From the NCBI GenBank assembly GCA_041490825.1, contig JBGPTW010000007.1, positions 561 through 64,560 of the forward strand: 64,000 nt of DNA, read 5' to 3'. Source of the stretch: Candidatus Methylomirabilia bacterium (GTDB taxonomy: Bacteria > Methylomirabilota > Methylomirabilia > Rokubacteriales > CSP1-6). The position numbers were made by a program, and so were the translations under genes. Numbering within the stretch: position 1 is the first letter of the stretch; each line of letters opens with the position of its first letter. Below the pieces are notes generated by a model that saw only the letters and a program-made list of their open reading frames with translations, was not told where the DNA came from and did no database searches. Positions 7,908 to 58,586 of this stretch are shown here, one piece after another.

Positions 7908-8204
7908 CTACCGCTCGCGGTAGGTGTCCTCGCGGCGGAGACCGCAGCGCTTTAGGACCACCTCACGGCCGGCCACCTCGTAGCGGAACCGCCAGCGACC
8001 AAGGCTAAGCCGCCACTGACCATCGTCGAGGGCAACGCCCTCGAGCTTTTTGATGTGGCGGTTCCGCGTTCGGTTCAAGGGGTCGGCGCCGAGAATGGCA
8101 ACCGCCCGCTCCTGGATGGGGGAGAAGTCCGGGTGCTGACGCAGGAGCTTCCTCGAGAGGCGCTCGTAGTGCGGGCTGGTGCGGACAAGAAACGGCGGCG
8201 TCAT
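7908..8204 (-). CDS. Type II toxin, RelE/ParE family
   Basis: 98 aa, ...WRLSLGRWRFRYEVAGREVVLKRCGLRREDTY. Its ATG overlaps the antitoxin stop (ATGA). Confidence 0.7.
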   Translation of the reverse strand: MTPPFLVRTSPHYERLSRKLLRQHPDFSPIQERAVAILGADPLNRTRNRHIKKLEGVALDDGQWRLSLGRWRFRYEVAGREVVLKRCGLRREDTYRER

Positions 8205-8494
8205 GCACTGCGACGCCGCTTCACCTTTCGCTCCTCTTCAGCACGGAGTTCCGCCAGGAACGCGGCGGCCGGCCGGCTCTTGCCGGCCCGGTACTCGGCG
8301 GTGCTCCGCCGGATGTCGGCCTGGACTTTGGGATCCTGGAGCTCGAGATAGTCCTCGAATTCGTCGATGTCCATGACGCCGGCGAGCGGGATGCCATCCT
8401 TTTCGAGGATCACATACTCCTTGTTGAGATGGACGCGCTTCACCACGGCGCCGAGGCTGTTGCGGGCCTGGGTGAGGGGGAGATGTTTGACCAT
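8201..8494 (-). CDS. Type II antitoxin, Phd/YefM family
   Basis: 97 aa, MVKHLPLTQARNSLGAVVKRVHLNKEYVILEKDGIPLAGVMDIDEFEDYLE. Confidence 0.8.
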   Translation of the reverse strand: MVKHLPLTQARNSLGAVVKRVHLNKEYVILEKDGIPLAGVMDIDEFEDYLELQDPKVQADIRRSTAEYRAGKSRPAAAFLAELRAEEERKVKRRRSA

Positions 8495-11651: not shown

Positions 11652-11767
11652 GGTCGCGGGCGCGCCGGACGCGGGGGCACTCCTTCGTCTCGGAAACCCG
11701 CTCGCTCCGGAGTGCCCCCGCGTCCGCCGCTTCGCGGGCGTCACGATCTCGCCCGCGTGGTCGGGCG

Positions 11768-12193
11768 TCAGGCGGAGAGCCGGGTCCGGATGTTGATCTC
11801 CGACGTCAGTGTCCGGTGCACCGGACACTTCTTTGCAATCTCGAGGAGCCGGGCGCGCTGCTCCTGCGTCAGCGTTCCGCTGAGTGCGATCTCGCTCTCG
11901 ATCCGGTCGAGCATGCCGTCCTTGGTTTCGCACTCCGCGCAGTCGACGACGTGGATCCTCGCGTGCTGCAGCGTCACGGTCACGTCGTCGAGCGGCCACT
12001 GCTTGCGTCGCGCGTACAGCGCGATCGTCATGGACGTTCAGGACCCCAGCGCCGCCAGCAGGAAATCGTACGGCGTTGCTCCCGTCTCGGTCCCGCCCGC
12101 CGCCGTGGGCTCATCGGCCTTCAGGCGATGCGACCCAGCCGTGATGTCTTGCGCGAATCCTGACGCTTTACCGCGGACGATGACGGTCGCCAT
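11768..12193 (-). CDS. osmC: OsmC/Ohr-family peroxiredoxin with an in-frame TGA (12040..12038) at the catalytic Cys position. Either a selenocysteine-containing OsmC or a Cys-to-stop pseudogene
   Basis: Read directly: ATG at 12193 (GAGGAG 8 nt upstream) gives [70 protein letters not shown]...[11 protein letters not shown]. The TGA falls in the LGSCT motif. The second conserved Cys (KCPV) is present. Confidence 0.55.
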
Positions 12194-12233
12194 GTCGGTT
12201 GCTCCTCGCGTGCGGTGGTGTTCGGGTGAACCC

Positions 12234-12280: not shown

Positions 12281-13402
12281 ATGACACGCTACGACGTCGC
12301 GATCGTCGGCGCGGGGATCGTGGGCGCGTCGGCCGCGTACGCCATCGCGCGCGCCGGTGCCCGCATCGTGGCCATTGACGCCGTAGCTCCTGGCGCAGGC
12401 ACGAGCGGAAGCTCGTTCGCCTGGCTCAACGCGGTCCGGAAGGAGCCGGACGTCTATCATCGACTGAACGCCGACGGCATGAGCGCGCACCGAACGCTGG
12501 CGCGCGAGCTCGGCGGCGACACCGGCCATCACGATGGCGGCTCCCTCGAATGGGCCGATGGCGGCGATGCAGAGCGTGAGCTGCGCGCTCGCGTCGCCCG
12601 GCTCGCGCATCGTGGTTACCCGGCAGAGTGGATCAGTCGGGATCGCGCCGGTCGCATCGAGGCAGGACTGAGCATTCCCGCTCACGTCACCGAGGTCGCG
12701 TTCTACGCCGGCGACGGTTGGCTCGACGCTCCGCGATTGATCGGCTGCCTGATCGCGGGCGCGGCGGAGCGCGGTGCGACGATCCTGAAGCAGACGCCGG
12801 TGCGGTCGTTCCGCATGCGGGCCGGGCGCGTCGAGGCGCTCGCCATCGATGGCGGAGAGATCGTCGCGGAGTCGGTCCTGGTCTGCGTCGGGCCGGCGAC
12901 GCAGGAGCTGCTGGCGCTGCTTGGCGTCACGGTCCCCGTCGGCCGTGTCCCCGGACTTCTCGCCGTCACGTCCCGCCCGCCACAGCCGCTCGCTCGTGTC
13001 GTCCACGCGCCCGGGATTCATCTGCGTCCCGACGCGACCGGTGGTCTCCTGCTGGGCGCCGGCGACGTCGACACGCTTGCCGCCAACGGCGGATCGACTG
13101 AGGCGCGCTGGCAGCTCGCGGCGCTCTTGCTCGACCGCGCGATCCGGGTGTTTCCGTCCGCGCGCGACGTGCGGGTCGTGGCCAGCCGCATGGGTGTTCG
13201 GCCGATGCCGGCCGACGGTCACACGATCGCCGGACGAATCCCGGGATTCGAGAACGCGTGGGTGCTCGCCACGCACAGCGGAGTCACGCTCGGTCCGCTC
13301 CTCGGGCAACTGATCTCGGCGGAGATCGTCGGTGGAACGCCGAGTGACGCGCTTGCTCCGTTCCGCCCGGAACGATTTGCCGTAGCGGGCGCGGCGAGGT
13401 GA
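12281..13402 (+). CDS. FAD-dependent oxidoreductase (DAO / glycine-oxidase-like)
   Basis: N-terminal VAIVGAGIVGASAAYAIARAG dinucleotide-binding motif, 373 aa. Confidence 0.75.
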   Translation: MTRYDVAIVGAGIVGASAAYAIARAGARIVAIDAVAPGAGTSGSSFAWLNAVRKEPDVYHRLNADGMSAHRTLARELGGDTGHHDGGSLEWADGGDAERELRARVARLAHRGYPAEWISRDRAGRIEAGLSIPAHVTEVAFYAGDGWLDAPRLIGCLIAGAAERGATILKQTPVRSFRMRAGRVEALAIDGGEIVAESVLVCVGPATQELLALLGVTVPVGRVPGLLAVTSRPPQPLARVVHAPGIHLRPDATGGLLLGAGDVDTLAANGGSTEARWQLAALLLDRAIRVFPSARDVRVVASRMGVRPMPADGHTIAGRIPGFENAWVLATHSGVTLGPLLGQLISAEIVGGTPSDALAPFRPERFAVAGAAR

Positions 13403-13429: not shown

Positions 13430-13524
13430 GAGAAGGCTGGCGCGTGAGAAGGCTGACGCCTGAGAAGGCTGACGCCTGAGAAGGCTGGCGCCTGAGGAGG
13501 CTGACGCCCGAGAAGGCTGGGAGG
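13430..13524. repeat. 16-bp tandem repeat GAGAAGGCTGACGCCT, about 6 copies
   Basis: Read directly. The same unit family recurs at 50510-50545. Confidence 0.7.
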
Positions 13525-16245: not shown

Positions 16246-17184
16246 CTACGGGCGCAGGAGTCCGATCTCGCGCAGATAGCGCTGGACGCCGGAATGGAGC
16301 AGCTCGAGCCGCGGCGCGGCCTCGATTGTATTCTCGGCGGTCGTCTCGCGCGCTTGCGGCAGGCGCGTGGCCAGCGCGGACTGGCCCTGGTGGAGCGCGC
16401 GCGCGAGCCGATAGGCCACGCCGTCCGGCAGCGATGGGCGCGTCATGATGAGGCTCCACGATCCAACCGACACGATCGGCGTCGCCTGGCCGGGGTACGA
16501 GCCGGCGGGGATCGTCAGGCGTTTGAGGAATGCGTGCTTCGCTTGAACCTGCGTGATGCCGTCCGCGTCGGGCGCGATGAAGCGGGCGCCCTGCTCCGAT
16601 CTCGCGACGGCGATGAAGCCCGGCCACCCGATGCCGCCGCCCCAGAGCGCCGCGACGCGTCCGTCGAGCACCATCTTCGGTCCATCGCCGGCCGCGTCGA
16701 GGAGGATCGCCTGGAAGTCGCGCTGCTGGTCGAGCCCGAGACCGTCGAGCACGTAGCGCGCGAGGATCACGAGCCCGGAGCCGCGCGCGCCGAACGCCAC
16801 GGGCTTGCCTTTGAGGTCCGCGATCGAGCGCGCCGGCGAATCCGCGCGGACCACGAACATCCCGGGCGTGGAATACATCGCGGCGAGAATGCGAAGGTCC
16901 GCTTTCGCCTCGTGCAGGACCTCGCCCTGCACGAGCGCGATGTCGAGCTCGCCGGCCTCGAGCATCGGCACGTTCTCGGTGCTGCCCTTGGTGTTCTTGG
17001 TGCGCACCTCGAGCGATGCGTCGATCTCGTTGATCGTGGCCGCCACCGCGTCACCGTAGACGGGGAACCCGCCGCCCGGAGTTGCGGTGCCGAGGACGAC
17101 GACGTCCTTGCTCACGGCGCGTACCGTAGCAGCAGCGACGCGCGCAGGGCAAGCGCTCCGTGGCGCTCGTCTCGTGCGTTCCAC
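16246..17184 (-). CDS. TRAP transporter solute receptor, TAXI family. N-terminal boundary uncertain because the ORF stays open through the upstream 153-bp repeat array
   Basis: C-terminal 313 aa of ORF 16246..17658. GTG at 17184 with GGGAAG 4 nt upstream. No DctQ/DctM permease genes nearby. Confidence 0.6.
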   Translation of the reverse strand: MERTRRAPRSACPARVAAATVRAVSKDVVVLGTATPGGGFPVYGDAVAATINEIDASLEVRTKNTKGSTENVPMLEAGELDIALVQGEVLHEAKADLRILAAMYSTPGMFVVRADSPARSIADLKGKPVAFGARGSGLVILARYVLDGLGLDQQRDFQAILLDAAGDGPKMVLDGRVAALWGGGIGWPGFIAVARSEQGARFIAPDADGITQVQAKHAFLKRLTIPAGSYPGQATPIVSVGSWSLIMTRPSLPDGVAYRLARALHQGQSALATRLPQARETTAENTIEAAPRLELLHSGVQRYLREIGLLRP

Positions 17185-17208
17185 GTCACTTCCCGTTGCG
17201 CCTGCGAC

Positions 17209-17670
17209 GGGGCGGGGCCGCGCTCCGCTGAACACGCTATCCACTCTGCCGCGTCCGGCTTTCAGTTGGGGCCACGAGACTCTGCCGCTTGCTTCAGTCG
17301 GTCCGCAGAAGCCACGGTTCAGCGGAGCGCAGCCCCGCCCCGCCGCACGCACCGGCGGACGCCGGCGGGGCCGCGCTCCGCTGAACACGCTATCCACTCT
17401 GCCGCTGCCGGCTCGCGGTTGGGGCCACGAGACTCTGCCGCTTGCTTCAGTCGGTCCGCAGAAGCCACGGTTCAGCGGAGCGCAGCCCCGCCCCGCCGCA
17501 CGCACCGGCGGCCGCTGGCGGAGCCGCGCTCCGCTGAACACGCTATCCACTCTGCCGCTGCCGGCTCTCAGTTGGGGCCACGAGACTCTGACGCTTGCTT
17601 CAGTCGGTCCGCAGAAGCCACGGTTCAGCGGAGCGCAGCCCCGCCCCGCCGCACGCACCGGCGGACGCCG
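17209..17670. repeat. Tandem array, 153-bp unit x3. Each unit is a conserved ~80-bp core flanked by 23-bp inverted-repeat arms (ggcggggccgcgctccgctgaac / gttcagcggagcgcagccccgcc)
   Basis: Unit starts at 17221, 17374 and 17527, read in sequence. Related copies are at 42288-42441 and 53475-53620. Confidence 0.85.
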
Positions 17671-17756
17671 CCGGCCGCCTTGACAGCGCGCGTGTGCGCG
17701 GCATAGACATGGGGCCGGATCGCTGACCCGAGCCGCGACCGATCCGGAGGAACGCG

Positions 17757-30788: not shown

Positions 30789-31481
30789 TCACTCCGTCAG
30801 CAGCCGATACCCCACGCCGGGCTCCGTGACGAGGTGGCGCGGGCGCGCCGAGTCCTTCTCGAGCTTGCGGCGGAGATGTGCCATGTAGACACGCAGATAG
30901 TGCGACTGGTCTCCGGCGTTCGGGCCCCAGACCTCGTGCAGGAGTCGCCGGTGAGTGATGACCTTGCCGGCATGGCGCACCAGGGTCGCGAGCAGGCGGT
31001 ACTCGATCGGCGTGAGGTGCACCTCGGCGCCCTGGATCAGCACGCGCCGGCGCCCGAGGTCGATGTGCAGATCGCCGACCGTCAACGTCGACTCGGCCGA
31101 ATCGCGGTCGACGTGCGCGCGGTGCCGTAGCGCCACGCGCATGCGCGCCAGCAGCTCACCGATGCCGAACGGCTTGCTCAGATAGTCGTCGGCCCCGGCG
31201 TCGAGCGCTTTGATCTTGTCCTGTTCCTGACCACGCGCCGACAGCACGATGATCGGCACGGTGCTCCATTCCCGTAGCCGGGCGATGACCTCGAGCCCAT
31301 CGATGTCCGGAAGACCAAGATCGACGATGACGACGTCCGGCTGACGGCTCGCCACCTCGACGAGCCCGTCCTCGCCCGTCCCCGTCTCGAACAGGCGGTA
31401 GCCCTGGCCCGTGAGCGCCGCCCGGAGAAACAGGCGGATCTGCGGCTCGTCCTCGATGACGACGACGCAGGGCTCAGGCAT
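30789..31481 (-). CDS. kdpE: Response regulator KdpE (OmpR family)
   Basis: Receiver (VVIVDLGLPDIDG) plus winged-helix domains. Overlaps the kdpD stop. Confidence 0.85.
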   Translation of the reverse strand: MPEPCVVVIEDEPQIRLFLRAALTGQGYRLFETGTGEDGLVEVASRQPDVVIVDLGLPDIDGLEVIARLREWSTVPIIVLSARGQEQDKIKALDAGADDYLSKPFGIGELLARMRVALRHRAHVDRDSAESTLTVGDLHIDLGRRRVLIQGAEVHLTPIEYRLLATLVRHAGKVITHRRLLHEVWGPNAGDQSHYLRVYMAHLRRKLEKDSARPRHLVTEPGVGYRLLTE

Positions 31482-34164
31482 CGGAAGGGACGGCGGCGGG
31501 CGGCGCGTCCCCCACCGGAAGCGTGAAGAGGAACGCGACGCCGCCCTCGGGAAGGTTCTGCGCCCAGATCCGGCCGCCGTGCGCGCGCACGATGCCCTGA
31601 CAGATCGCGAGGCCGAGACCCGCTCCGCGCTCGCCGGCCGGCCCCGCTCGATAGAACTTCTCGAAGACCTTGTCTTCCTCGCCCGGCGGTAATCCCGGAC
31701 CGCGATCGGCGACCTCGACCGTGACGGTCCCGTCCATCGCGGTCGCCACGATGTCGATCGGGCTCGTCGTCGGCGTGTACTTGAGCGCGTTGTCGAGCAG
31801 ATTGATGAGAACCTGCTCGATCAGCACGTCGTCGATGGCGACGAGCGGCAGATCCTCCGGCACGCGCGTCCGCACGCGCCGGCCCGCGAGCCGCTGTCCG
31901 AGACGACTCAGTGCGGCGCCGATGACTTCCTCGAGCGGGTGCCATTCCTTGCGAAGCTTCAGCGCGCCGGACTCGAGTCGCGTCATCTCGAGGAGGTTTT
32001 GCACGAGCCGGTTCAATCGCTCGGCCTCGTCGCGCACGGATTCCAGAAGTTCCTGGCGGGTCTGCGCGTCGAGGCGCCCGCCGTCCTCGAGAATGGTGCT
32101 GACGGCGCCGGTGATCGTGGCGAGCGGCGTCTTCAGATCGTGCGACACCGAGCTGAGCAAGGAGTTGCGTAGACGTTCCGTCTCGATCCGGACTTCCGCG
32201 TCTTGCGTCTCCTCGGCAAGGAGCGCGCGCTCGATGGCCAGGGCCGTCTGGTTCGCAAACGTTTCGAGCTGGTGAAGCTGGTCCGGAGCGTCAAAGGCGT
32301 GGCGATCGGGAGGACGTACGCCGAGGACGCCGACAGGCCCGCGCGACGCCGCCAGCGGGAGGTACAGCGCCGAGGCGCCGGGAAGGGTGGCCGTGCCGAG
32401 CCCCGCGGATTGGCGGTGCTCGTAGACCCAGCGCGCGACGGCCAGCTCGCGCTCGTCGATCTGAAAGCCAGCGGCGCCGCCGCTCCGAACGGCGAGCCGC
32501 CCCGAGGGGTCCGGGCGGAGGACGGCGACCTCACACCGGAACACCTCCGCGATGTGTCGCACCGCAATGGCCAGCAGCGAGTCCACCCCGCGCGTGCTGG
32601 CCAGATCCCGGCTCATCGCATAGAGCGCTGCCGTCCGCTGCTCGCGCTCTCGGGCCGCCAGCGCCTGGGCGCGGATGCGCACCGTCAGGCCGCTGATCAC
32701 GAAGCCGACGATCAGCATGACGGCGAACGTGAAGAGGTATCGGACATCGGAGACCGCGAACGTGAAGTACGGCGGCACGAAGAAGAAATCGAGAGCCGCC
32801 ACGCTGAGGACGGACGCCAGCAGCGACGGGCCGCGCCCGTGCTGCATCGCGACCACCACGATCCCGAGCAGGTACACCATGATGAGGTTGGCCAGCTCCA
32901 GGAACGGGAACATGAGCCACGCGCCGCCGGTCGTTGCCGCGACGATCGCCGCGGCCCGGAGGTAGGGCGGCCAGTCGGTCGGGATCGCGCGTCGCCCGAC
33001 GGGCGCAACGGGCCGGACGTTCTCACGGTCGCCGCTGATGACGTAGATATCGATTTCGCCGCTGCCTTGCACCAGCGCGTCCACGATCGAGCCGATGAGG
33101 ACGCGCTTCCACAGCGACCGCGTCGGCTTGCCCACGATGATGCCGGTGACGTTGCGGTCCCGCGCGAACGCCAGGATGGCCTCGCTCATCCGTTGCCCGC
33201 TCAGCGTGGCGGTCGTCGCCCCGAGCTGCTCGGCGAGCCGTAGCGTCTGGATCACGCGGTCCTTGGCGTCCTGAGGCAGCCGGAGCTGGGCCGGAGTCTC
33301 GACGTACGCGACGATCCACTCGGCGCCGAGCCGCTCCGCCATCCGCTTTCCAGCGCGGACGAGTCGCGCGGAGTACGGGCTGGGGCCGATCGTGACGAGC
33401 AGCCGCTCCGCCGTCGGCCACACCTTGCCAATCGCGTGATCTCGCATGTACACGCGCATCTGGGCATCCACGCGCTCGGCGGTGGAGCGCAGCGCGAGCT
33501 CGCGGAGCGCGATCAGATTGCCCTTGCGGAAGAAGTTGTGGATGGCCTCCTCGGCCTGTCCGGGCATGTACACCTTGCCCTCGCGGAAGCGTTGCAACAG
33601 GTCATCCGGCGGCAGGTCGATCAACTCCACCTCGTCGGCTTGCTCCAGCACGGAATCCGGCACGGTCTCGCGCACGACGACGCCGGTGATCTTGGCCACG
33701 ACGTCGTTCAGGCTCTCGACGTGCTGGACGTTCACAGTGGTGTAGACGTCGATGCCGGCATCGAGCAGCTCGAGCACGTCCTGCCAGCGCTTGGCGTGGC
33801 GTGAGCCCGGCGCGTTGGTGTGCGCGAGCTCGTCGACGACGATGAGGCTCGGACGGCGGGCCAGCGCGGCGTCGAGGTGGAGCTCGCGGAGCGTCGCGCC
33901 GCGATAGTCGACGGGCCGGGGTGGGAGGACCTCGAGGCCCTCCAGCAGCGCGTCGGTCTCGGCGCGGCCATGGGTCTCGGTGTAGCCGATCACCACGTCG
34001 ATGCCGTCGGCACGCTGCTCGCGCGCCGCCTCGAGCATGGCGTACGTCTTGCCGACGCCGGCGGCGGCCCCGAAGAACACCTTCAGCTTGCCGCGCCGCT
34101 GCCGCGCCTCCTCTTCCTGGACGCGGACCAGCAGCGCATCGGGATCGGGCCGCGCGGTACTCAC
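31474..34164 (-). CDS. kdpD: Sensor histidine kinase KdpD (KdpD N-terminal, Usp, TM, GAF, HisKA and HATPase domains)
   Basis: GTG at 34164 gives MSTARPDPDALLVRVQEE..GKLKVFFGAAAGVGKT, matching the canonical KdpD N-terminus. The ORF track offers GTG 34284, which directly abuts an AAGGAGG. Confidence 0.85.
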   Translation of the reverse strand: MSTARPDPDALLVRVQEEEARQRRGKLKVFFGAAAGVGKTYAMLEAAREQRADGIDVVIGYTETHGRAETDALLEGLEVLPPRPVDYRGATLRELHLDAALARRPSLIVVDELAHTNAPGSRHAKRWQDVLELLDAGIDVYTTVNVQHVESLNDVVAKITGVVVRETVPDSVLEQADEVELIDLPPDDLLQRFREGKVYMPGQAEEAIHNFFRKGNLIALRELALRSTAERVDAQMRVYMRDHAIGKVWPTAERLLVTIGPSPYSARLVRAGKRMAERLGAEWIVAYVETPAQLRLPQDAKDRVIQTLRLAEQLGATTATLSGQRMSEAILAFARDRNVTGIIVGKPTRSLWKRVLIGSIVDALVQGSGEIDIYVISGDRENVRPVAPVGRRAIPTDWPPYLRAAAIVAATTGGAWLMFPFLELANLIMVYLLGIVVVAMQHGRGPSLLASVLSVAALDFFFVPPYFTFAVSDVRYLFTFAVMLIVGFVISGLTVRIRAQALAAREREQRTAALYAMSRDLASTRGVDSLLAIAVRHIAEVFRCEVAVLRPDPSGRLAVRSGGAAGFQIDERELAVARWVYEHRQSAGLGTATLPGASALYLPLAASRGPVGVLGVRPPDRHAFDAPDQLHQLETFANQTALAIERALLAEETQDAEVRIETERLRNSLLSSVSHDLKTPLATITGAVSTILEDGGRLDAQTRQELLESVRDEAERLNRLVQNLLEMTRLESGALKLRKEWHPLEEVIGAALSRLGQRLAGRRVRTRVPEDLPLVAIDDVLIEQVLINLLDNALKYTPTTSPIDIVATAMDGTVTVEVADRGPGLPPGEEDKVFEKFYRAGPAGERGAGLGLAICQGIVRAHGGRIWAQNLPEGGVAFLFTLPVGDAPPAAVPSDA

Positions 34165-34377
34165 GGGCGTTAGTGTAGCGCGGCGGGGCGCGCACCACGG
34201 ATCATGCGAGGCGGAGGCGCGTCCCGGCGACCTCCCAGCCGTCGACGCCCAAGCGTGCCCTTCCCGACTCCCCGTTTTTGACACCTCCTTAACGCGGACG
34301 GACTCGATCTTGACCGTTTCTTGACATGAGGCTGACTACGCTCGATGCGTGACCAGCTGAGTCAGGAGGCGACCGCG

Positions 34378-34458
34378 ATGGATCTTCTGTACGTCGGACT
34401 GGGTGTGCTGTTCTTCGGCCTGACCTGGGCGCTCGTCAGATTGTGTGAGCGCCTGTAG
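34378..34458 (+). CDS. Small hydrophobic KdpF-like peptide (26 aa) immediately upstream of kdpF
   Basis: ATG 8 nt after [32 protein letters not shown]. Confidence 0.35.
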
Positions 34459-34467
34459 GAGAAGACG

Positions 34468-34560
34468 ATGCCACTCCTTTACCTCGTTGGCGGTGTCGTG
34501 TCACTGGGGCTCCTCGTGTACCTGGTGATCGCGCTCCTGAAGCCGGAGCTCTTCTCATGA
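34468..34560 (+). CDS. kdpF: KdpF
   Basis: [41 protein letters not shown]. Its stop overlaps the kdpA ATG (ATGA). Confidence 0.6.
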
Positions 34561-36362
34561 CGGCGAACGGCGCGCTCCAGCTGATCCTGTACGTCGGCGT
34601 TCTGCTGGCGCTGGCCAAGCCGCTCGGCGCCTACATGGCGCGCGTGTACGAGGGCCGGCGACTGGCCCTCGATCGCGTCCTCGGCTGGCTCGAACGCCTG
34701 ATCTATCGGTTGTGCGGCGTCCGACCCGACGAAGAGATGGGCTGGCGGACGTATGCGGTGACGATGCTGCTCTTCAACCTCGCCGGCTTCCTCGTGGTCT
34801 ATCTGCTCCAGCGTGTCCAGGGTGGCTTGCCGCTCAACCCCGAGAAGCTCGGCGCCGTGTCGCCCGATTCATCGTTCAACACGGCGGTCAGCTTCGCGAC
34901 GAATACGAACTGGCAGGGCTACGGCGGCGAGACGACGATGAGCTACCTCACGCAGATGCTCGGGCTCACCGTGCAGAACTTCGTGTCGGCCGCCACCGGC
35001 ATGGCCGTGCTCGTCGCGATGATCCGCGGTTTCGCGCGCCGATCGGCGGAGACCATCGGAAACTTCTGGGTCGACCTGACGCGGACGACGCTCTACATCC
35101 TGCTGCCGCTCTCGTTGGTGTTCGCCGTGGTCCTCGTCTCCCAGGGCGTCGTTCAGACGTTCAGCCCCTATGCCAAGGCAGCCGTCGTGCAGGCGACGAG
35201 CTACGACGAGCCGATCGCCGACAAGGACGGGAAGCCTGTCCTGGACGAGAAGGGGCAGCCGAAGACGAAGAGGTCGACGCTCACCGAGCAGACGATCGCC
35301 GTCGGCCCGGCCGCGTCACAGATCGCGATCAAGCAGCTCGGCACGAATGGCGGCGGCTTCTTCAACGTCAACTCGGCGCATCCCTTCGAGAACCCGACAC
35401 CACTCTCGAACTTCCTCGAGCTGCTGGCGATCCTGCTCATCTCCGCTGCGCTCTGCCACACCTTCGGCATCATGGTCGGCGACACGCGCCAGGGCTGGAC
35501 CGTCCTCGCGGCGATGACCGTCATCTTCGTCGGACTGCTCATCGTGTGCGTGGTGGCCGAGCAGAACGGTCACGTGTTCGCGAAGCAGGGCGTGGATCAC
35601 ACCGCCACTGCGTTGCAGGCCGGCGGCAACATGGAAGGCAAGGATGTCCGGTTCGGCATCGCGAATTCGGCGCTGTGGGCGACGGCAACGACCGCCGCCT
35701 CGAACGGATCGGTGAACTCCATGCACGACTCCTTCACCCCGATCGGGGGCCTCGTCCCGATGTGGATGATCCAGCTCGGCGAGGTCGTCTACGGCGGCGT
35801 GGGCTCGGGGCTCTCCGGGATGCTGGTGTTCGCCCTCGTCGCGGTGTTCATCGCCGGGCTGATGGTCGGCCGCACGCCCGAGTACCTCGGCAAGAAGATC
35901 GAGGCATACGAGATGAAGATGTCGTCGCTCGTCATCCTGATTCCGCCGGCGGTGGTGCTGATCGGCACGGCCATCGCCGTCGTGACCACGGGCGGGAAGG
36001 CCGGCCAGGCGAACCCCGGCGCCCACGGGTTCAGCGAGATCCTCTACGCGTTCTCGTCGGCCGGCAACAACAACGGCAGCGCATTCGCCGGCCTCTCCGC
36101 GAACACGCCGTTCTACAACACGGCGCTCGGCATCGCGATGCTCTTCGCGCGGTACTGGCTCGCGATCCCGACGCTGGCGATCGCGGGCTCGCTCGCCCAG
36201 AAGAAGATCGTCCCGGCCGGGGCGGGCACGCTGCCGACGCACACACCGCTCTTCGTCGCGCTGCTGGTCGGCGTCGTCATCCTGGTCGGCGCGCTGACGT
36301 TCGTCCCGGCCCTGGCGCTCGGGCCGATCGTCGAGCATCTGGCGCTGGTCGCCGCCAAGTGA
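34557..36362 (+). CDS. kdpA: Potassium-transporting ATPase subunit A
   Basis: 601 aa, [33 protein letters not shown]. Confidence 0.9.
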
Positions 36363-36465
36363 ACCCCCAACCCATAAAGAACCGTTCCAGCGGCGAGCGT
36401 TGCGGTGGGGGGTGTCAGAGGAGGAGCGGCGCCGCTCCCCCCTGTCGCAAACAATGAGGAGATCC

Positions 36466-38538
36466 ATGGCGGCCTCGACGAGAGCACGATCGCTGTTCGA
36501 CGCTTCGATCGTCAAGCAGGCGGTGATCGATTCCTTCCGCAAGCTGACGCCCCGCCGTCAGGTGCGGAATCCCGTCATGTTCGTGGTGTACGTGGGTTCC
36601 ATCCTGACGACGCTGCTGTGGGTCCAGGCGGCGGTTGGGAAGGGTGAGGCTCCCGGCTGGTTCATCTTCTGGGTGTCGGTCTGGCTCTGGTTCACGGTGC
36701 TGTTCGCGAACTTCGCCGAGGCCATGGCCGAAGGACGCGGCAAGGCGCAGGCGGCGTCGCTGCGAAAGGCGCGCCTCGATCTTCAGGCGAAGAGGCTCCA
36801 TCAGCCGCAGCATGGCGCGAGGTACCAGACCGTCGCCGCCTCCACGCTGCGCCAGGGCGAGGTCGTCCTCGTCGAGGCCGGCGATTTCATCCCGGCCGAT
36901 GGCGAGGTCATCGAGGGCGTGGCCTCGGTCAACGAGGCCGCGATCACCGGCGAGAGTGCGCCGGTGATCCGCGAGAGCGGCGGCGACCGCAGCTCGGTCA
37001 CCGGCGGTACCCAGGTGCTGTCGGACTGGCTGGTCGTGCGCGTCACCGCGAATCCGGGCGAGGCGTTTCTCGATCGCATGATCTCGCTGGTGGAAGGCGC
37101 CAAGCGCCAGAAGACGCCGAACGAAGTAGCGCTCGATATTTTGTTGGCCGCGATGACGATCATCTTCCTGCTCGCCACGGCCACGTTGCTCCCGTTCTCG
37201 CTGTACAGCGTGCAGGCGGCCGGGCACGGCACGCCGATCACCGTCACCGTCCTCGTTGCGCTGCTCGTGTGCCTCATCCCGACCACGATCGGCGCGCTGC
37301 TTTCCGCGATCGGCATCGCCGGCATGGACCGCATGATCCAGAAGAACGTCATCGCGATGTCGGGCCGCGCCGTCGAGGCGGCCGGCGACGTCGACGTGCT
37401 GCTGCTCGACAAGACTGGCACGATCACGCTCGGCAACCGCCAGGCGACCGCGTTCTTCCCGGCCGAGAACGTGAGCGAGGCGACGCTGGCGGATGCGGCG
37501 CAGCTCGCCTCGCTCGCCGACGAGACACCCGAGGGCCGGAGCATCGTCGTGCTCGCCAAGGAGAAGTACGCCATTCGCGAGCGCGACATCGCGAAGCTCG
37601 GCGCCACGTTCGTCGCGTTCACCGCGCAGACGCGCATGAGCGGGGTGAACATGAGCGGCCGGCAGATTCGCAAGGGCGCCGCCGAGGCGATCGAGAAGCA
37701 TGTCCGGCTCCTCGGCGGGACGTTCCCGCCCGCGGTCCGGGCGGTCGTGGACACGATCGCCAAGCAAGGGGCGACGCCACTGGTCGTCTCCGACGGGCAG
37801 GCCGTGCTCGGGGTGATCCAGCTCAAGGACATCGTGAAGGGCGGGATCAAGGAACGGTTCGGCGAGCTGCGCCGCATGGGGATCAAGACCGTGATGATCA
37901 CCGGCGACAACCCGCTGACCGCTGCCGCGATCGCGGCCGAGGCCGGCGTGGACGATTTTCTCGCCGAGGCCACGCCGGAAGCGAAGCTGAAGCTGATTCG
38001 CGACATTCAGGGCGCGGGGCGGCTCGTGGCGATGACCGGGGACGGCACGAACGACGCCCCGGCGCTCGCTCAGGCCGACGTCGCGGTCGCGATGAACACA
38101 GGCACGCAGGCCGCGAAGGAAGCCGGCAACATGATCGATCTCGACTCGAACCCGACGAAGCTGCTCGAGGTCGTCGAGACCGGCAAGCAGATGCTGATGA
38201 CCCGCGGGGCGCTCACGACGTTCAGCATTGCCAACGACGTCGCGAAGTACTTCGCGATCATCCCGGCGGCGTTCGCGACGACGTATCCGGTGCTGAACGC
38301 GCTCAACATCATGCATCTGGCGACGCCGCAGAGCGCGATCCTGTCCGCCGTCATCTTCAACGCGCTCATCATCGTCGCGCTGATTCCGCTCGCGCTGAAG
38401 GGTGTCAAGTACCGCGCGCTCGGCGCGGCCGTCGTCCTGCGCCGTCATCTGTGGATCTACGGCGTGGGCGGCATCATCATCCCGTTCCCGGGGATCAAGC
38501 TCGTCGACATGATCCTCACGGCGCTCGGGCTGGTGTAA
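36466..38538 (+). CDS. kdpB: Potassium-transporting P-type ATPase subunit B
   Basis: ATG at 36466 after TGAGGAG. The DKTGTIT and [10 protein letters not shown] motifs. Confidence 0.9.
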
Positions 38539-38550
38539 AGGAGCTTCGCC

Positions 38551-39120
38551 ATGCTGAACCACATTCGCGCTGCGGTCGTCTCGCTGGCGCTGTTCACGGT
38601 GATCACGGGGATGGTTTATCCCGCGCTCGTGACCGTCATTGCGCAGGTCGTGTTCCGGCATCAGGCCAACGGCAGCTTGATCGTCAAGGACGGCAAGGTC
38701 GTCGGCGCGGCGCTGATCGGCCAGCCGTTCGACGATCCGAAGTACTTCTGGGGGCGGCCGTCGGCCACGACGCCGTTCGCGTACAACGCCGGCTCCTCGT
38801 CGGGCTCGAACCTCTCCCCGACGAATCCGGATCTCGTCAAGACGGTGCAGGGGCGCGTCGATGCGCTGCATGCCGCAGATCCCGGTAACACGGCGCCGGT
38901 GCCCGTCGATCTCGTGAGCGCCTCGGGCAGCGGTCTCGATCCGCACATCAGCCCGGCGGCGGCGTTCTATCAGGTGGCGCGCGTCGCCAGGGCGCGCAAG
39001 CTCAATCCCGACGCTGTCCGCCGTCTGGTCCAGCAGCACGTCGAAGGGCGGACGCTCGGAGTCCTGGGCGAGCCGCGAGTGAACGTCCTCGAGCTGAACC
39101 TGGCGCTCGACGGCAAATAG
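38551..39120 (+). CDS. kdpC: Potassium-transporting ATPase subunit C
   Basis: 189 aa, [28 protein letters not shown]. Confidence 0.85.
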
Positions 39121-39145: not shown

Positions 39146-40372
39146 GTGACTCGAATCCGAACGCTCATCGTGTGCGCGCTCGCGCTCCTCGTGGTGACGC
39201 CGGGAGCCGCAATGGCGCAGAAGTCGCTCGCCGACGTGCTGGGCTGGCCAGCCACGCCCGAAGGGCAGCCCAAGACGTATCGCGAGGAGCTGACGCTCTA
39301 CGGGTACGTCGAGAACAGCTACGTCTTCAATCCGCATCCCGGTCGCGGCAACGTCAACGAGCTGCGGTTCTACGACCACGATGCCGGGTACACGTTCAAC
39401 GCCGCGGAGATCAGCATCAAGAAGGATCCGTCGGAGCGCTATCGCTTCGGCTACGGCATCGTCGCCACCGGCGGCGTCGATTCCCAGAAGAACCATTCGC
39501 TCGGGATCTTTCGCGACAAGGACGATCAGGGACCCCTGTTCAGGAACACACCCCAGATCGATTTCCCCGAGATGTACGCGTCGTATCTCGTCCCGGTCGG
39601 TGACGGCCTCACGCTGAAGGCCGGAAAATGGGGGACGCCCATCGGCTACGAGGGGTACGAGAGCCCCAAGAACCTGAACTTCTCGCGCTCGTTCCTGTAT
39701 ACGCTCGGCACGCCGTACACGCACACGGGACTGCTCGCGAGTTACCAGTTCACGCCGTGGTTCGGCGCGAGTGCGGGCTTCACCAACGGCTGGGACAGCG
39801 CTGACAACAACAACGGCTACCTCCGGCCGATGGGCCTCTTTGACTTCACGCCGATCGACAAGCTGACCGCCTCCGTGCACTGGATGTTCGGCCCCGAGCA
39901 GAACAGGAGCCAGATGCGCGGGAACGACGTCAACCAGCGCTGGATCGTCGACACGACGATCGTCTACACGGGCATCGACAAGGTCACGCTCGCAGTCAAC
40001 TTCGACTTCGCCGGTGAAGAGAACGACCCGGCGCTCGTCGGCACGCGGAAGGACGCCGATTCCCGCTGGGGCGGCATCGCGGGGTACGCGGGATACGACT
40101 GGACGAAGGCGCTTCGCACGGTCGTCCGGCTCGAGTACTTCACCGATCCGCAAGGTGTCCGCAGCAGCGAGACGATCATGCCCGGCAACCGGGCCGATCT
40201 CTGGGAGACGACGGCTACGGCGGAATACAAGATCTGGCGCGGGCTGGTCGGGCGCCTCGAATATCGCCACGATCAAGCCAATCGCAATGCCTTCAGCGTT
40301 CAGGACCACCGCGGGCCGACCTCGCGCGAGCAGAACACGCTGACGCTGGCGCTGTCCTACTCGTTCTTCTGA
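39146..40372 (+). CDS. Outer-membrane beta-barrel porin encoded inside the kdp operon
   Basis: Signal peptide, alternating beta-strand pattern, C-terminal ...LALSYSFF. Confidence 0.6.
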   Translation: MTRIRTLIVCALALLVVTPGAAMAQKSLADVLGWPATPEGQPKTYREELTLYGYVENSYVFNPHPGRGNVNELRFYDHDAGYTFNAAEISIKKDPSERYRFGYGIVATGGVDSQKNHSLGIFRDKDDQGPLFRNTPQIDFPEMYASYLVPVGDGLTLKAGKWGTPIGYEGYESPKNLNFSRSFLYTLGTPYTHTGLLASYQFTPWFGASAGFTNGWDSADNNNGYLRPMGLFDFTPIDKLTASVHWMFGPEQNRSQMRGNDVNQRWIVDTTIVYTGIDKVTLAVNFDFAGEENDPALVGTRKDADSRWGGIAGYAGYDWTKALRTVVRLEYFTDPQGVRSSETIMPGNRADLWETTATAEYKIWRGLVGRLEYRHDQANRNAFSVQDHRGPTSREQNTLTLALSYSFF

Positions 40373-49765: not shown

Positions 49766-50508
49766 CCGCGCTCGCGGTGGAGCGACTCGTCCACGATTTC
49801 GGTGGCCTGCGCGCGCTCGCGGGTGTCGACTTCGCGGTCGCGCGAGGTGAGCGCCTCACCATCCTGGGCCCGAACGGGGCGGGCAAGACGACGTTGTTCA
49901 ATCTCATCACGGGAATCTATCGAACGCAGGCCGGTCGCATCCGGCTCTTCGACCACGACGTGACCGCGCTCAAGCCGCACCGGCGCGCGCGGCTGGGGCT
50001 GGGACGCACGTTTCAGATCACCACGCTGTTTCCGGGGCTGTCCGTGCTGGACAGCGTGTTGCTCGCGGTGCAAGGCGCCGATGCCATCCGCTTCGCCTTG
50101 CACCGGCCGCTGACGGCGTATCCGCATCTCTTCGAGCGCGCGGAAACGTTGCTGGGCGAATGGGGCCTGCTCGACCGGCGCGACGTGCTGACGCGGCAGC
50201 TCTCCTACGGCGAGCAGCGGCAGGTCGAGCTGATCCTCGCACTCGCCGGCTCGCCGCGGGTCCTGTTGCTCGACGAGCCGACCGCCGGACTCTCGCCGGC
50301 GGAGACCGCCGCCGTCGCGTCGATGATCCGTCGCTTCTCTCGCGACATCACGGTGCTGCTGATCGAGCACGACATGGACGTCGCGCTGGAGCTGGCCGAT
50401 CGCGTGACGGTGCTCTACCAGGGCCGCGTGCTGGCTGCGGGCACGACCGAGGAGATCCGGAGAAACCGCCAAGTGGCCGAGATCTATCTGGGGACCGATG
50501 AAGGCTGA
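49762..50508 (+). CDS. livG: Branched-chain amino-acid ABC ATP-binding protein
   Basis: GTG overlaps the livM TGA. The GPNGAGKTT, LSYGEQRQ and LLLDEP motifs. Confidence 0.85.
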   Translation: MTALAVERLVHDFGGLRALAGVDFAVARGERLTILGPNGAGKTTLFNLITGIYRTQAGRIRLFDHDVTALKPHRRARLGLGRTFQITTLFPGLSVLDSVLLAVQGADAIRFALHRPLTAYPHLFERAETLLGEWGLLDRRDVLTRQLSYGEQRQVELILALAGSPRVLLLDEPTAGLSPAETAAVASMIRRFSRDITVLLIEHDMDVALELADRVTVLYQGRVLAAGTTEEIRRNRQVAEIYLGTDEG

Positions 50509-50509
50509 C

Positions 50510-50545
50510 GCCTGTGAGTGCTGACGCCTGTGAGGGCTGACGCCC
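50510..50545. repeat. 16-bp tandem repeat x3 (CTGACGCCTGTGAGKG) inside the livG-livF spacer. Same family as 13430-13524
   Basis: Read in sequence. Confidence 0.6.
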
Positions 50546-51241
50546 GTGCTTGATGTCCGCGATATCCACACGAGCTACGGCGAGAGCTACATCCTGCAAG
50601 GCGTGTCGCTCACCGTCGGCGCCGGCCAGGTCGTGTCGGTGCTCGGCCGGAACGGCGTCGGCAAGACCACGCTCATGCGCTCGATCATCGGCTTCACACC
50701 GCCGCATCGCGGGCACGTCGTGCTGAACGGCGAAGACATCACCCGTCTCCCGACGCATCAGATCGTCCGGCGCGGCATCGGTCTGGTTCCGCAGGGCCGG
50801 CGCGTCTTCCCGTCGCTCGACGTGCAGGAGCATCTCCTCATCGGGGAGCGTCGCGCCGGGACCTCACGCTGGGAGATCGACAAGATCCTGGACCTGTTCC
50901 CGCGGCTGCGCGAGCGGTTGCATCAAGGCGCGGGCAAGCTGTCCGGCGGCGAGCAGCAGATGCTTGCGTGCGGGCGCGCGCTGGTCGGCAATCCCAGAAT
51001 TCTATTGATGGACGAGCCGTCCGAAGGGCTCGCGCCACTCCTGGTCCGCGAGCTCGGCCGCATTCTCGCGGAGTTGAAGGCGCGCGGTACGTCGATCCTT
51101 CTGGTCGAGCAGAACCTCGCGTTCGCGCTCCGCGTCGCCGACCGCGTGTATCTGATGTCGAAAGGCCGGATCGTGCACGAGACGGCGCCCGACGATCTCC
51201 GCCGCGACGAAGCTGCCAAGTCGCGGTGGCTGGGAGTGTGA
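50546..51241 (+). CDS. livF: Branched-chain amino-acid ABC ATP-binding protein
   Basis: GTG start. The GRNGVGKTT and LSGGEQQM motifs. Confidence 0.85.
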   Translation: MLDVRDIHTSYGESYILQGVSLTVGAGQVVSVLGRNGVGKTTLMRSIIGFTPPHRGHVVLNGEDITRLPTHQIVRRGIGLVPQGRRVFPSLDVQEHLLIGERRAGTSRWEIDKILDLFPRLRERLHQGAGKLSGGEQQMLACGRALVGNPRILLMDEPSEGLAPLLVRELGRILAELKARGTSILLVEQNLAFALRVADRVYLMSKGRIVHETAPDDLRRDEAAKSRWLGV

Positions 51242-53748: not shown

Positions 53749-54159
53749 GTGGTGGCCGACGACCGAGACCTGGATCTCGCTGCTGCGTTGGGCGCAGAGC
53801 GCGAGGCCTCGACTCAGATCCTCTCACTCTACATTCCGAACAAGGACCGCCACGGTCGGCCGATCAGGACAGCCCGGTGGATTCGAGAGGCGCAGGAGAT
53901 CCTGACCAAGATTGGAGAAGGCTACACCACGACCCCGCCTCACGACGGCGGCTGGGAAACCGGGAGCGGACAGCTCCGACGCGAGAGAACCGTAATCGTG
54001 TACACGTATATCAAGCCAGAGCGGTTTCTCGCGCACGTCGGCGCGCTTCGTGAGTTTCTGCACCGTTTCGGTCGGGAGACGAACCAGGAAGTTGTCGTGG
54101 CCGAACTGAGCGGTGCTGAGGGTTCTTGGTTCTTCCGCATCAAAGAGTACGACGAATGA
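53749..54159 (+). CDS. Hypothetical protein (136 aa), first gene of an unknown pair
   Basis: GTG start. No recognisable domain. Confidence 0.4.
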   Translation: MVADDRDLDLAAALGAEREASTQILSLYIPNKDRHGRPIRTARWIREAQEILTKIGEGYTTTPPHDGGWETGSGQLRRERTVIVYTYIKPERFLAHVGALREFLHRFGRETNQEVVVAELSGAEGSWFFRIKEYDE

Positions 54160-54170
54160 CGGAGGCACGC

Positions 54171-54596
54171 ATGGCAGCCAAATTCAAAATCACGAGCCGT
54201 TCCGCTGGCGCGATTCGGCATGCGGGGATTGCCGCCCGGTCAGTGGGTCCCGAGGCGATCGCTAAAGCGCTCGGCGCCGCCGAGATCGTACCCAGGGGAA
54301 GTGTTCACGGCGCCCCGATCAGCCTGCACGCCTTGCGGCGAGAGCTGGAGAGCAGGGTTCGCTCAACGGGCGGGCGGCCGGCCCTCGAAGGAGCAACCAA
54401 GATCCAGAAGATTCCGCTGAAGCCTGAGGATTGGTCGCGGCTCGAAGAGCTAGCCGACGAGCTTGCGCGGCAAGGCGTCTCGGCGACAGCCGGCCAAGTC
54501 GCAAGCGTCATGGTGCACAGCCAACTGGAGCGCCTTGCACCATCGGCTACGCGGCAGGCCGGGATTGGCTCATCACGCTCATCATCTGGGCGGTAG
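54171..54596 (+). CDS. Hypothetical protein with a C-terminal ribbon-helix-helix-like segment
   Basis: ATG 5 nt after GGAGG and 12 nt after the upstream stop. ...TKIQKIPLKPEDWSRLEELADELARQGVSATAGQVASVMVHSQLERL. Confidence 0.4.
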   Translation: MAAKFKITSRSAGAIRHAGIAARSVGPEAIAKALGAAEIVPRGSVHGAPISLHALRRELESRVRSTGGRPALEGATKIQKIPLKPEDWSRLEELADELARQGVSATAGQVASVMVHSQLERLAPSATRQAGIGSSRSSSGR

Positions 54597-54851
54597 GATG
54601 TTCCGTCTGGATGTCTCTCTACGATTGGGCGCTGGACCGACTTGGGAGGGCTCGCGGATGGTGGCCGAGATGAAAGGCGTTTGCCGTATCGGGCTCGCTC
54701 TCCTCTGCTGCCTGCTCGCCTTCGCCGGGTCGGCTTCCGCCGAGCGCGCGTGGGTGCTGTGATGCCAGAACCGTCTCGCCAACGGATTACGGTTGGGGAG
54801 ATGGCTGAACACCTTGTAGGTTTTATCGGACAGGACACTGAGAAATTCGAA

Positions 54852-54885
54852 TGGTGGCCCCAACGGGATTCGAACCCGTGTTTGA
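54852..54885 (-). other. tRNA 3'-end fragment (T-arm, acceptor 3' strand and CCA: acgggttcgaatcccgttggggccacca). No complete cloverleaf; att-site-like remnant
   Basis: Read in sequence. No complementary 5' acceptor strand or anticodon arm upstream. Confidence 0.5.
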
Positions 54886-55379
54886 GTCGCGACCACGTTT
54901 TCGCTGAAAGTGATCGCATGTTGCGCGCTGTTTAGTTCCGAAAAAATCGGCGCGACTGAAACACGACCCACGGCGAGACAAGAATCGCCGGCACGCGAAA
55001 GCCAAGCCGTACGATCACACCTCGCTTCTTGCGACGGTGAAGAAACTCTTCAAGCTGCCGGACTTCCTCACGCGCGTGTTGGCGACGAGCGCAAAGCTCG
55101 CGCGTTGGCCGACCTTGAAGCGCACCTCGATCGCAGTCGGCTGGCCCGCGAAGATACGCTGCGCCGAGCATCGCTGCCCGAACCCGAGCGCCGCTGGCTC
55201 GTCGAGCATCGCCCCGAAGCCGCCAAGCACTGGAACCTCCTGACGGACTGGACCGCAGATGCCCTCCGCTACACCGCCTGAATTACCAAATCCGTGGGCC
55301 TGCTGACGGACCCCGCGAGCAGGCGGCGGGTCAAGGGTCGCCGAAGGCGACGAGCGGAGCGAGATCTACTGGCGGATAT

Positions 55380-55566
55380 GTCTTTTTATCAACATTATTA
55401 GTGCCTTATGGGAGACCTGCCTATCTGATGTTGTTCATGTTTGACACATGTTCACGTTTGGTGTACATGAGAATTAACTGAACATAAATTGTGGTCGTTC
55501 ATAACTTCATGATGTTCACGTAACGTGAACATGTATATAAAATGAACAGATGGTAAGGACTAAGCC
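55380..55566 (+). promoter_or_regulatory. Markedly AT-rich promoter/operator region with palindromes (TGTTCACG-TAA-CGTGAACA; CATGT-N5-ACATG; repeated TGTTCA/TGAACA half-sites)
   Basis: Read in sequence immediately upstream of the ATG at 55567. Confidence 0.4.
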
Positions 55567-57478: not shown

Positions 57479-57868
57479 CCCCCGCCGACTCGGGTGTTCC
57501 GCAAATGTTGACGTTCAACAAGTGTTGAAATGTCAACGGCCCGCAGAGTCGGCAGCCCAGAAACTGAGTCGAGAATGCCAGGCTAGGCTACGCGGGTGCG
57601 GCGCACCCCCGAGAAATCCGGCAGGCTGGCTGCGGGCGTTTGAGCCGATGAACGAAGCTGATACCTGTCGCAAGTTCATCGCTCCACGCCTCTAGGCCGT
57701 GCGTGGCTTGTACGCCCTGAGGTGCGCAGCCTCGACGACCGCCCAGAATCGCTCTGGCCGCTCCACGCCCGGTGACGTCGTTTTTGTCCATCTTGTCCAT
57801 CCCTTTTCGATGACTGACTGTCAGTGCTCGACTGACGGTCAGTCCCAGACTGAATAGTGGAGCGAGGA

Positions 57869-58285: not shown

Positions 58286-58286
58286 C

Positions 58287-58481
58287 TCAGAAGACGCGCC
58301 GGATCTTGCCCTTTCCGCGCGCAACCCGGAGCGCCCGGTCGATGCCCGCCTCTGTCACCACCAGGTCGAGCGCACGATCGAGTGTCTCCGTCTCCGTCTT
58401 CGCGGCGAGCGCGCGGCGCGCGCGGTCGAGCTTCCGTTGGTCGAGCTGCACGTGCTTGTGTCGGAGCCCAGTCGCCATCAT
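58287..58481 (-). CDS. vapB: Antitoxin VapB-like (64 aa)
   Basis: ATG after AAAGGGGGGA. MMATGLRHKHVQLDQRKLDRARRALAAKTE... Its stop lies 1 nt before the vapC ATG. Confidence 0.55.
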   Translation of the reverse strand: MMATGLRHKHVQLDQRKLDRARRALAAKTETETLDRALDLVVTEAGIDRALRVARGKGKIRRVF

Positions 58482-58586
58482 CGGTCCCCCCTTTCGCAAT
58501 TCGCGACGATGTACACAGAATAACGATTCATGAACATCAGTGCAACGACGAGCGTGTAGATAGCGGGGGGACCCGGAGCCGCGAGT

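Follow-up and report, generated by a model that had tools for sequence, protein, structure and literature searches.

Known OsmC-like selenoproteins and the locus under study

The Sargasso Sea selenoproteome already included OsmC-like (COG1765) selenoproteins (Zhang, Fomenko & Gladyshev 2005; PMC1088965), and PF02566, 'OsmC-like protein', is still present in a selenoprotein catalogue of 2026 (PMC13188914). Here we analyse a stretch of 64,000 nucleotides from a Candidatus Methylomirabilia bacterium (assembly GCA_041490825.1, contig JBGPTW010000007.1, positions 561 to 64,560 of the forward strand), hereafter referred to as the window, and within it a minus-strand gene encoding an OsmC-like protein whose reading frame contains a TGA codon at residue 52. 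A previous examination of the letters alone (the sequence-only reading) had pointed to this gene as a candidate of the selenocysteine (Sec)/Cys type, correctly counting OsmC-like proteins among the reported Sec families. On the evidence presented below, namely the conservation of the TGA, the selection acting downstream of it and the RNA-level constraint on a hairpin, we consider it very likely that the open reading frame (ORF) 12193..11768 is an OsmC-like gene recoded in a SECIS (Sec insertion sequence)-dependent manner, in which Sec would replace the first active-site Cys.

The predicted protein shares with the COG1765 selenoproteins its membership of PF02566, the placement of Sec at the first conserved Cys, a bacterial SECIS (bSECIS)-type hairpin directly downstream of the UGA and the existence of widespread Cys homologues. 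Furthermore, JGI labels the Cys orthologues 'putative redox protein' or 'uncharacterized OsmC-like protein', names suggestive of COG1765. Two differences were noted: the published motif is UxxT while the window sequence reads U-T-S-M-T, with Thr at both +1 and +4 (a comparison made by description), and the hosts are soil Rokubacteria/Methylomirabilota and Gemmatimonadota rather than marine plankton.

Throughout, numbering is that of the window and the gene lies on the minus strand; "Sec form" denotes a gene with TGA at the Sec codon and "Cys form" one with TGC or TGT there. The elements of the gene are as follows.

12193..11768, minus strand: candidate selenoprotein ORF (OsmC-like, COG1765/YhfA-type) of 141 codons and a stop codon, residue 52 being U.
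12207..12202, minus strand: Shine-Dalgarno-like GAGGAG, 8 nt before the ATG, read from the sequence and presumed to act in initiation.
12040..12038, minus strand: in-frame UGA, proposed Sec codon (residue 52), at the site of the first conserved (peroxidatic-type) Cys.
12024..12008, minus strand: bSECIS-type hairpin with stem UCGCGC/GCGCGA and loop UGUAC, proposed from comparative and folding analyses.
11930..11941, minus strand: DCxxC motif (C85 and C88), present in the alignments of Sec and Cys forms and in PDB 9wo1.
11827..11825, minus strand: codon for the second conserved Cys (resolving-type, C123 of KCPVH), invariant in the alignment.

Translation begins at the ATG 12193..12191, from which 51 sense codons ending in ...LLAALGS precede the in-frame TGA; past the TGA the same frame stays open for 89 further codons up to the stop TGA at 11770..11768. 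The start codon, the GAGGAG 8 nt upstream, the 51 codons, the TGA and the same-frame continuation, as well as the intact second Cys (KCPV) and the hairpin at 12008-12024, 13 nt past the UGA, had all been proposed in the sequence-only reading, and each was recovered on the minus strand at the place given there.

The in-frame UGA occupies the position of the catalytic cysteine

When Cys was placed at the TGA, the product matched the Pfam OsmC profile PF02566 with E=5.8e-18 and 65.6 bits (cutoff 27.5), covering profile positions 1-99 of 100. The closest solved structure was the C-terminal OsmC domain of PDB 9wo1 (E=4e-33, or 2e-42 with the family profile), where U52 aligns with the Cys of LGACTAMT, and in a profile alignment the U52 column coincides with the Cys of Thermotoga maritima OsmC 1vla (LMGCTGMD). 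In OsmC/Ohr enzymes the first Cys is peroxidatic and the Cys of the CPV motif is resolving. The alignment of U52 with that first conserved Cys thus supports the placement of the UGA at the catalytic position, as originally claimed. An hhalign comparison with a sequence that we take to be E. coli OsmC set U52 on Cys59 and C123 (CPV) on Cys125, and its weak score makes it a lead only; the DCxxC pair presumably has no Cys partner in that protein, being unaligned to any Cys of the same assumed sequence.

The protein called OsmC/Ohr-type in the sequence-only reading retains that description at the level of the superfamily, through the PF02566 match, but not at the level of the two named families, since it scored 17.5 bits against the canonical OsmC model TIGR03562 (cutoff 85.8) and 16.7 bits against the Ohr model TIGR03561 (cutoff 88.85). 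By its sequence, it is a member of the COG1765/YhfA-like branch of the OsmC superfamily, neither canonical OsmC nor Ohr. This COG1765-type branch is the least characterised of the superfamily. Among the NCBIfam models the best match was NF041052, 'OsmC-related (seleno)protein', with E=4e-16 over residues 16-139.

The window protein and 9wo1 (annotated as 'Osmotically inducible protein C', 400 aa) have in common the LGxCTxMT, DCxxC and KCPVH motifs. They differ in that 9wo1 is a Cys form preceded by an N-terminal region of about 260 residues, while the window protein would be a stand-alone Sec domain of 141 residues. In this OsmC subfamily the DCxxC pair (C85, C88) is invariant in Sec and Cys forms alike, and may constitute a metal site or, alternatively, a redox relay or second redox centre.

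The TGA is conserved in intact genes under purifying selection

The same locus, found through the neighbouring DAO oxidoreductase gene, is present in JGI assembly 3300053057 and in the Logan assemblies SRR35962390 and SRR35969122. These three assemblies match the window at every base (100% identity) across 3.4-11.5 kb, TGA included, and in all three the public gene calls break the gene into products of 51 aa and 87 aa.

For a wider comparison, one genome per GTDB species was scanned, yielding 80 orthologous loci. The codon at the Sec column was TGA in 27 loci, derived from 15 Rokubacteria/Methylomirabilota metagenome-assembled genomes (MAGs), 11 Gemmatimonadota MAGs and one MAG labelled Chloroflexi (L055), and TGC or TGT in the remaining 53, so that alignment to Cys-containing orthologues pairs the TGA with a Cys codon. 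The window gene aligned collinearly over its full length with 77 orthologues, with no gaps from -30 to +88 codons around the Sec site. The Cys orthologues, such as the close homologue P0001 and those of Rokubacteria (L004/L008), resemble the window gene in this full-length collinearity and in their conserved residues, and depart from it in carrying TGC/TGT at the site and in the free drift of their hairpin codons.

Selection was assessed in 27 sequences, consisting of the window gene and 26 intact TGA loci (351 Sec-Sec pairs), with the hairpin excluded. Across codons +12 to +88 past the TGA, the mean proportions of synonymous (pS) and nonsynonymous (pN) differences were 0.52 and 0.18, respectively, and the median ratio of nonsynonymous to synonymous rates (dN/dS) was 0.225, compared with 0.285 upstream of the TGA; i.e., the 3' part is no less constrained than the 5' part. 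No frameshift or additional stop was found past the TGA in any of the 27 Sec sequences, and in each of them the ORF closes 88-95 codons beyond the UGA.

Exact-pattern matching of the TGA plus hairpin against JGI metagenomes retrieved at least 120 contigs. Among the matches listed, at least 107 contigs contained a complete 3' part, which in at least 80 measured exactly 88 codons, and at least 102 distinct peptides were represented. The full-length Sec form was absent among the best 120 database homologues. Two contigs carry a pair of Sec-type OsmC paralogues, each copy with its own UGA and an identical hairpin: on L091 the TGA codons lie at 816 and 1713, and on L106 the copies are about 2.6 kb apart. 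The Sec-type gene has been duplicated in some genomes.

Two loci deviate from this pattern. The L055 gene (6001-6414) possesses the TGA and an intact hairpin, but nine codons upstream a further stop, TAG, takes the place of a conserved Tyr, and the 5' half of the L086 gene is scrambled or degraded; in both cases the copy is probably in decay or locally misassembled.

A hairpin downstream of the UGA is constrained at the RNA level

The predicted stem comprises six base pairs (12024..12019 with 12013..12008) and begins 13 nt after the UGA. The loop UGUAC (12018..12014), with G and U at positions 2-3, begins 19 nt after it. An alignment of the 66 nt from the UGA onwards in the 27 Sec-type sequences was folded with RNAalifold in unguided mode, which returned a single helix pairing columns 17-22 with 28-33 in 27 of 27 sequences. 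The stem contained one compensatory change, from U-A to C-G in L026.

The codons that form the hairpin revealed a constraint beyond that on the peptide. In the Sec forms (n=27) third-position entropy was 0 bits at codons +5, +6, +7 and +9 and 0.23 bits at +10, the codons always reading NUC GCG CUG UAY GCG CGA; the rare Arg codon CGA appears in 26 of the 27, and the sole exception, CGG, belongs to the sequence with the compensatory change. The third position located in the loop (Tyr UAC/UAU) was unconstrained, with 1.0 bit. The corresponding third positions of the Cys forms (n=51) showed 1.4-1.8 bits. Likewise, all six stem pairs were possible in 27/27 Sec forms versus 3/51 Cys forms. When the comparison was restricted to genes encoding the same peptide (x-A-L-Y-A-R), the exact hairpin codons were found in 27/27 Sec forms and in 2/5 Cys forms (Fisher p=0.002). 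As judged from these codon patterns, the hairpin is held at the RNA level specifically in TGA-type genes.

The published bSECIS model (PMC13188914, Fig. 2) specifies a loop of 3-9 nt, a stem of 4-16 bp, a G at loop position 1, 2 or both, with G or U as the usual next base, a distance of 16-37 nt between UGA and loop, and a free energy (dG) of -7.5 kcal/mol or lower. The window hairpin falls within every one of these bounds, with a 5-nt loop, a 6-bp stem, a spacing of 19 nt and a dG of -9.2 kcal/mol. Across the Sec forms dG ranged from -9.2 to -10.6 kcal/mol, and all 27 Sec sequences have the loop UGUAY, whose second and third bases are G and U. The bSECIS-like hairpin that had been postulated at a suitable distance from the UGA is thus in agreement both with the published model and with a constraint confined to the TGA forms.

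Like the bSECIS of E. coli fdhF, the window hairpin follows the UGA immediately within the coding region and has an unpaired G-U in its loop. This G-U lies at +24/+25 from the U of the UGA in the window gene, and at +23/+24 (G23/U24) in E. coli fdhF. The window stem differs in being short, perfect and, as we describe it, GC-only, with no bulged U and no conserved lower stem, and the binding of SelB to it is putative. No Rfam family matched the window at gathering thresholds, and a permissive Rfam scan of 11950-12080 returned just a chance lncRNA match (E=3.6). To our knowledge, Rfam contains no general bSECIS model, so this null result is uninformative.

Proposed decoding and the points that weigh against it

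The mechanism we propose is standard bacterial Sec decoding. A ribosome reaching the UGA at 12040..12038 would encounter, 13 nt further on, a GC hairpin displaying G and U in its 5-nt loop. Acting as a bSECIS, this hairpin would recruit SelB-GTP-Sec-tRNA(Sec), and the UGA would be decoded as Sec instead of stop. In the resulting protein, U52 would serve as the nucleophile attacking a hydroperoxide. C123 (KCPVH) would then resolve the selenenic acid so formed, giving a selenenylsulfide to be re-reduced by a thiol donor. Both SelB binding and the incorporation of selenium at residue 52 are presumed in this scheme, and the hydroperoxide reductase activity is predicted by homology with OsmC/Ohr.

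The UGA codon is otherwise an ordinary stop here. TGA is the commonest stop of the window, ending 26 of the 42 confidently called genes, which rules out a genome-wide reassignment of UGA and indicates that recoding is limited to the OsmC site.

Several observations weigh against Sec decoding of this gene. As regards the machinery, no tRNA was found in the 64-kb window, no SelA, SelB or SelD domain among the approximately 70 window ORFs scanned with Pfam, and no tRNA-Sec in 203 related loci (1.45 Mb). Nor did a search of the window for in-frame TGAs with flanks of coding-like GC content at third codon positions (GC3) reveal a second selenoprotein gene. As regards the family, the NF041052 score was 59.2 bits against a curated cutoff of 95, which places the protein outside that family by the NCBI criterion and helps to explain why annotation pipelines miss the full-length gene. 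As regards the hairpin, the minimum free energy structure of the 69-nt context is a different one (z=+0.63 versus shuffled sequences), the hairpin pairs have an ensemble probability of about 0.23 in single-sequence folding, covariation amounts to one compensatory event, and a small number of Cys-type genes (L013, L042, L061 and P0001) have near-intact hairpins as well. Since single-sequence folding favours another structure, the support for the hairpin comes from the comparative data and not from thermodynamics. The claim that a 6-bp GC hairpin forms accordingly stands in its comparative part, with pairing in 27/27 sequences, and not as a prediction from the single sequence.

Two apparent leads were discarded in the course of these searches. 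A SelB-like match on a related contig (L023), obtained by tblastn with E. coli SelA, SelB and SelD queries, corresponded to EF-Tu beside an EF-G-sized ORF. The second lead, an MmgE/PrpD-like ORF of 105 aa at 62746-63063, matches the MmgE/PrpD N-terminal domain only up to about position 80; no frame continues this protein past its TGA, so it was rejected as a second selenoprotein and taken as a truncated fragment. The ORF 63078-63998 on the opposite strand had no Pfam match. Apart from the OsmC site, the in-frame-TGA scan gave only ordinary gene junctions and antisense artefacts.

That sel genes were not seen in 64 kb would be expected of unlinked genes. Genes selA, selB, selC and selD would be located elsewhere in the genome, an expectation for which the literature offers support at the level of the lineage. 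The passage of PMC13188914 that cites Deng et al. 2026 refers to a Methylomirabilota MAG with 63 predicted selenoprotein genes, and Sec-type Group 4 hydrogenases are known from Methylomirabilota (PMC13582414). For Gemmatimonadota, our search found no literature on selenoproteins.

Origin of the hairpin and alternative explanations

The near-intact hairpins of the Cys forms raise the question of how the Sec state arose. The closest Cys homologue, P0001 (encoded on L204, 2585-2660; 78% identical), reads TGC ... GUCGCGC-UGUAC-GCGCGG, with a U.G closing pair, which suggests a recent Sec/Cys switch. The Cys forms L042 and L061 read UUGCGC-UGUAC-GCGCGA, and L013 retains the full stem with the loop UCUAC. 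These four hairpins are candidates for either a 'fossil' or a pre-adapted SECIS, and near-intact hairpins in Cys forms are consistent with recent single-base Sec/Cys switches. In an unbootstrapped neighbour-joining tree of about 110 residues, from which the U/C column and the hairpin residues were masked, the Sec forms fell mostly into one region, divided between Methylomirabilota and Gemmatimonadota groups, and Cys clades were nested among the Sec ones.

Both the scattered hairpins and the nested Cys clades fit a reading in which the hairpin is largely a by-product of encoding the x-A-L-Y-A-R peptide in GC-rich codons. Such codons would leave Cys-type genes one or two substitutions away from a working SECIS, i.e., pre-adapted, allowing easy two-way Sec/Cys switching and transfer between Methylomirabilota and Gemmatimonadota, and a Sec state lacking a single origin. 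We regard this reading as possible, though on balance doubtful.

Considerably less probable is that SelB and the SECIS deliver Cys instead of Sec, through a tRNA(Sec)-like tRNA charged by cysteinyl-tRNA synthetase (CysRS), a route known from some bacteria. DNA does not tell which amino acid SelB delivers, and a very close Cys-type gene with a nearly intact hairpin, P0001, exists. Vargas-Rodriguez et al. (2018), a study cited in PMC13582414, reportedly dealt with such tRNA(Sec)-like tRNAs. Also in its favour, UGA-decoding tRNAs recognised by SelB have been described (Mukai et al.; PMC5389517). Against it, insertion of Cys by this route is rare beside canonical Sec decoding, no such tRNA was present in any related sequence searched, and maintaining a costly UGA and SECIS across two phyla would be pointless when TGC is one mutation away. 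This route is, accordingly, judged highly unlikely, and Sec remains the residue that we propose for position 52.

A pseudogene, in which a Cys-type OsmC gene acquired a Cys-to-stop mutation and the hairpin is incidental, would account for the split of the ORF by gene callers into 51-aa and 87-aa products, and decayed copies do exist (L055, with its extra TAG, and L086, with its degraded 5' part). It does not account for a TGA shared by 27 of 80 orthologous loci in two phyla and by at least 120 metagenome contigs, for a 3' dN/dS of about 0.23 over a region under purifying selection with no premature stops or frameshifts, or for the freezing of synonymous sites in the hairpin of TGA forms only. 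Independent nonsense mutations would not repeatedly hit one codon and spare the rest, and the pseudogene reading is thus effectively refuted.

Hardly any more credible is the production of two polypeptides, with termination at the UGA and restart at the ATG at 12031, the halves assembling or the 87-aa part working alone. This ATG lies three codons past the UGA, and gene callers do annotate an 87-aa 'OsmC' from it; however, most Cys-type genes conserve this Met just as well (TSMT), which marks it as a structural residue and not a dedicated restart. In addition, an OsmC fold deprived of its first ~54 residues and of the catalytic residue is unlikely to be functional, and restart leaves unexplained both the RNA-level conservation of the hairpin and the fact that the stop always falls on the essential active-site Cys.

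Finally, a sequencing or assembly error at a true TGC or TGT, from which TGA differs by one base, is the least probable explanation of all given that the three other assemblies agree base for base, TGA included, and that dozens of orthologues have the TGA. Pseudogene and error, the two alternatives named in the sequence-only reading, were therefore set aside on the basis of the three identical assemblies, the 27/80 TGA loci and the purifying selection.

Genomic context and other features of the window

The OsmC gene is monocistronic. On one side it is divergent from the DAO-type FAD oxidoreductase gene at 12281-13402, and on the other it converges with a gene encoding a BNR-repeat protein. The following element lies between the convergent genes.

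11662-11683 / 11709-11730: inverted repeat of 22 nt, 95% complementary, with a 25-nt spacer, between the convergent BNR-repeat and OsmC genes.

This repeat may represent a bidirectional terminator; a consensus terminator scan did not call it, because it has no T-run. The order OsmC-DAO-SDR is shared only with Rokubacteria AR23 (L001), at 72% and 84% amino acid identity, and points to a Rokubacteria-like source for the window; a conserved operon context was discarded on these grounds, and no functional link is drawn from the arrangement.

Repeats occur at several places. Between the DAO and SDR genes, positions 13430-13519 contain 5.6 copies of the 16-nt unit GAGAAGGCTGACGCCT, and a related 16-nt unit, TGAGGGCTGACGCCTG, is repeated 3.1 times at 50499-50548, just ahead of an ABC ATPase gene; the two arrays may belong to a dispersed intergenic repeat family. 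At 17211-17674 a 153-nt unit is present in 3.0 tandem copies (95% matches, Tandem Repeats Finder score 858). Roughly 150 codons at the 5' end of the minus-strand ORF 16246-17658 overlap this array, but the NMT1-like domain of the ORF begins only at residue 189, so the repeat is probably intergenic, between the gene of that ORF and the divergent ADH gene at 17757.

The region 54000-58500 shows a lower GC content (0.59-0.61, compared with ~0.68) and a weak coding signal. It encodes an AbiEi antitoxin (55567-56634) and an AbiEii toxin (56519-57478), which form a type IV toxin-antitoxin system, and a PIN-domain toxin on the minus strand (57869-58324), and is likely an acquired defence/toxin-antitoxin islet. 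Elsewhere, a Phd/YefM-type antitoxin gene on the minus strand (8201-8494) has a 4-nt overlap with an ORF of 98 aa (7908-8204) that matched nothing in Pfam; together (7908-8494) they probably form a type II toxin-antitoxin system, the toxin being unclassified. The kdp locus for potassium uptake at 30789-39120 is complete, with a kdpE-like response regulator and the kdpD sensor kinase (minus strand) divergent from kdpA, kdpB and kdpC; it is followed by an OmpL-like porin gene (39146-40372), an ordinary arrangement.

Significance for the OsmC-like family and its hosts

The proposed mechanism leaves the existing view of Sec decoding unchanged. What is new is the lineage, soil Methylomirabilota/Rokubacteria and Gemmatimonadota, a subfamily missed by the NCBI curated model, and a compact, invariant hairpin. 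In every assembly examined the gene had been reduced to a 51-aa orphan and an 87-aa 'OsmC' fragment, and the finding is mainly a correction of annotation: the signature of UGA plus hairpin could repair gene models in 26 species-representative MAGs and in at least 120 contigs from soil metagenomes. With its invariant sequence and minimal length of 17 nt, the hairpin provides a compact candidate bSECIS for the specificity of SelB in uncultured phyla. Furthermore, the gene would add an antioxidant-type selenoprotein to Rokubacteria/Methylomirabilota, a group flagged as selenoprotein-rich (PMC13188914), and to Gemmatimonadota.

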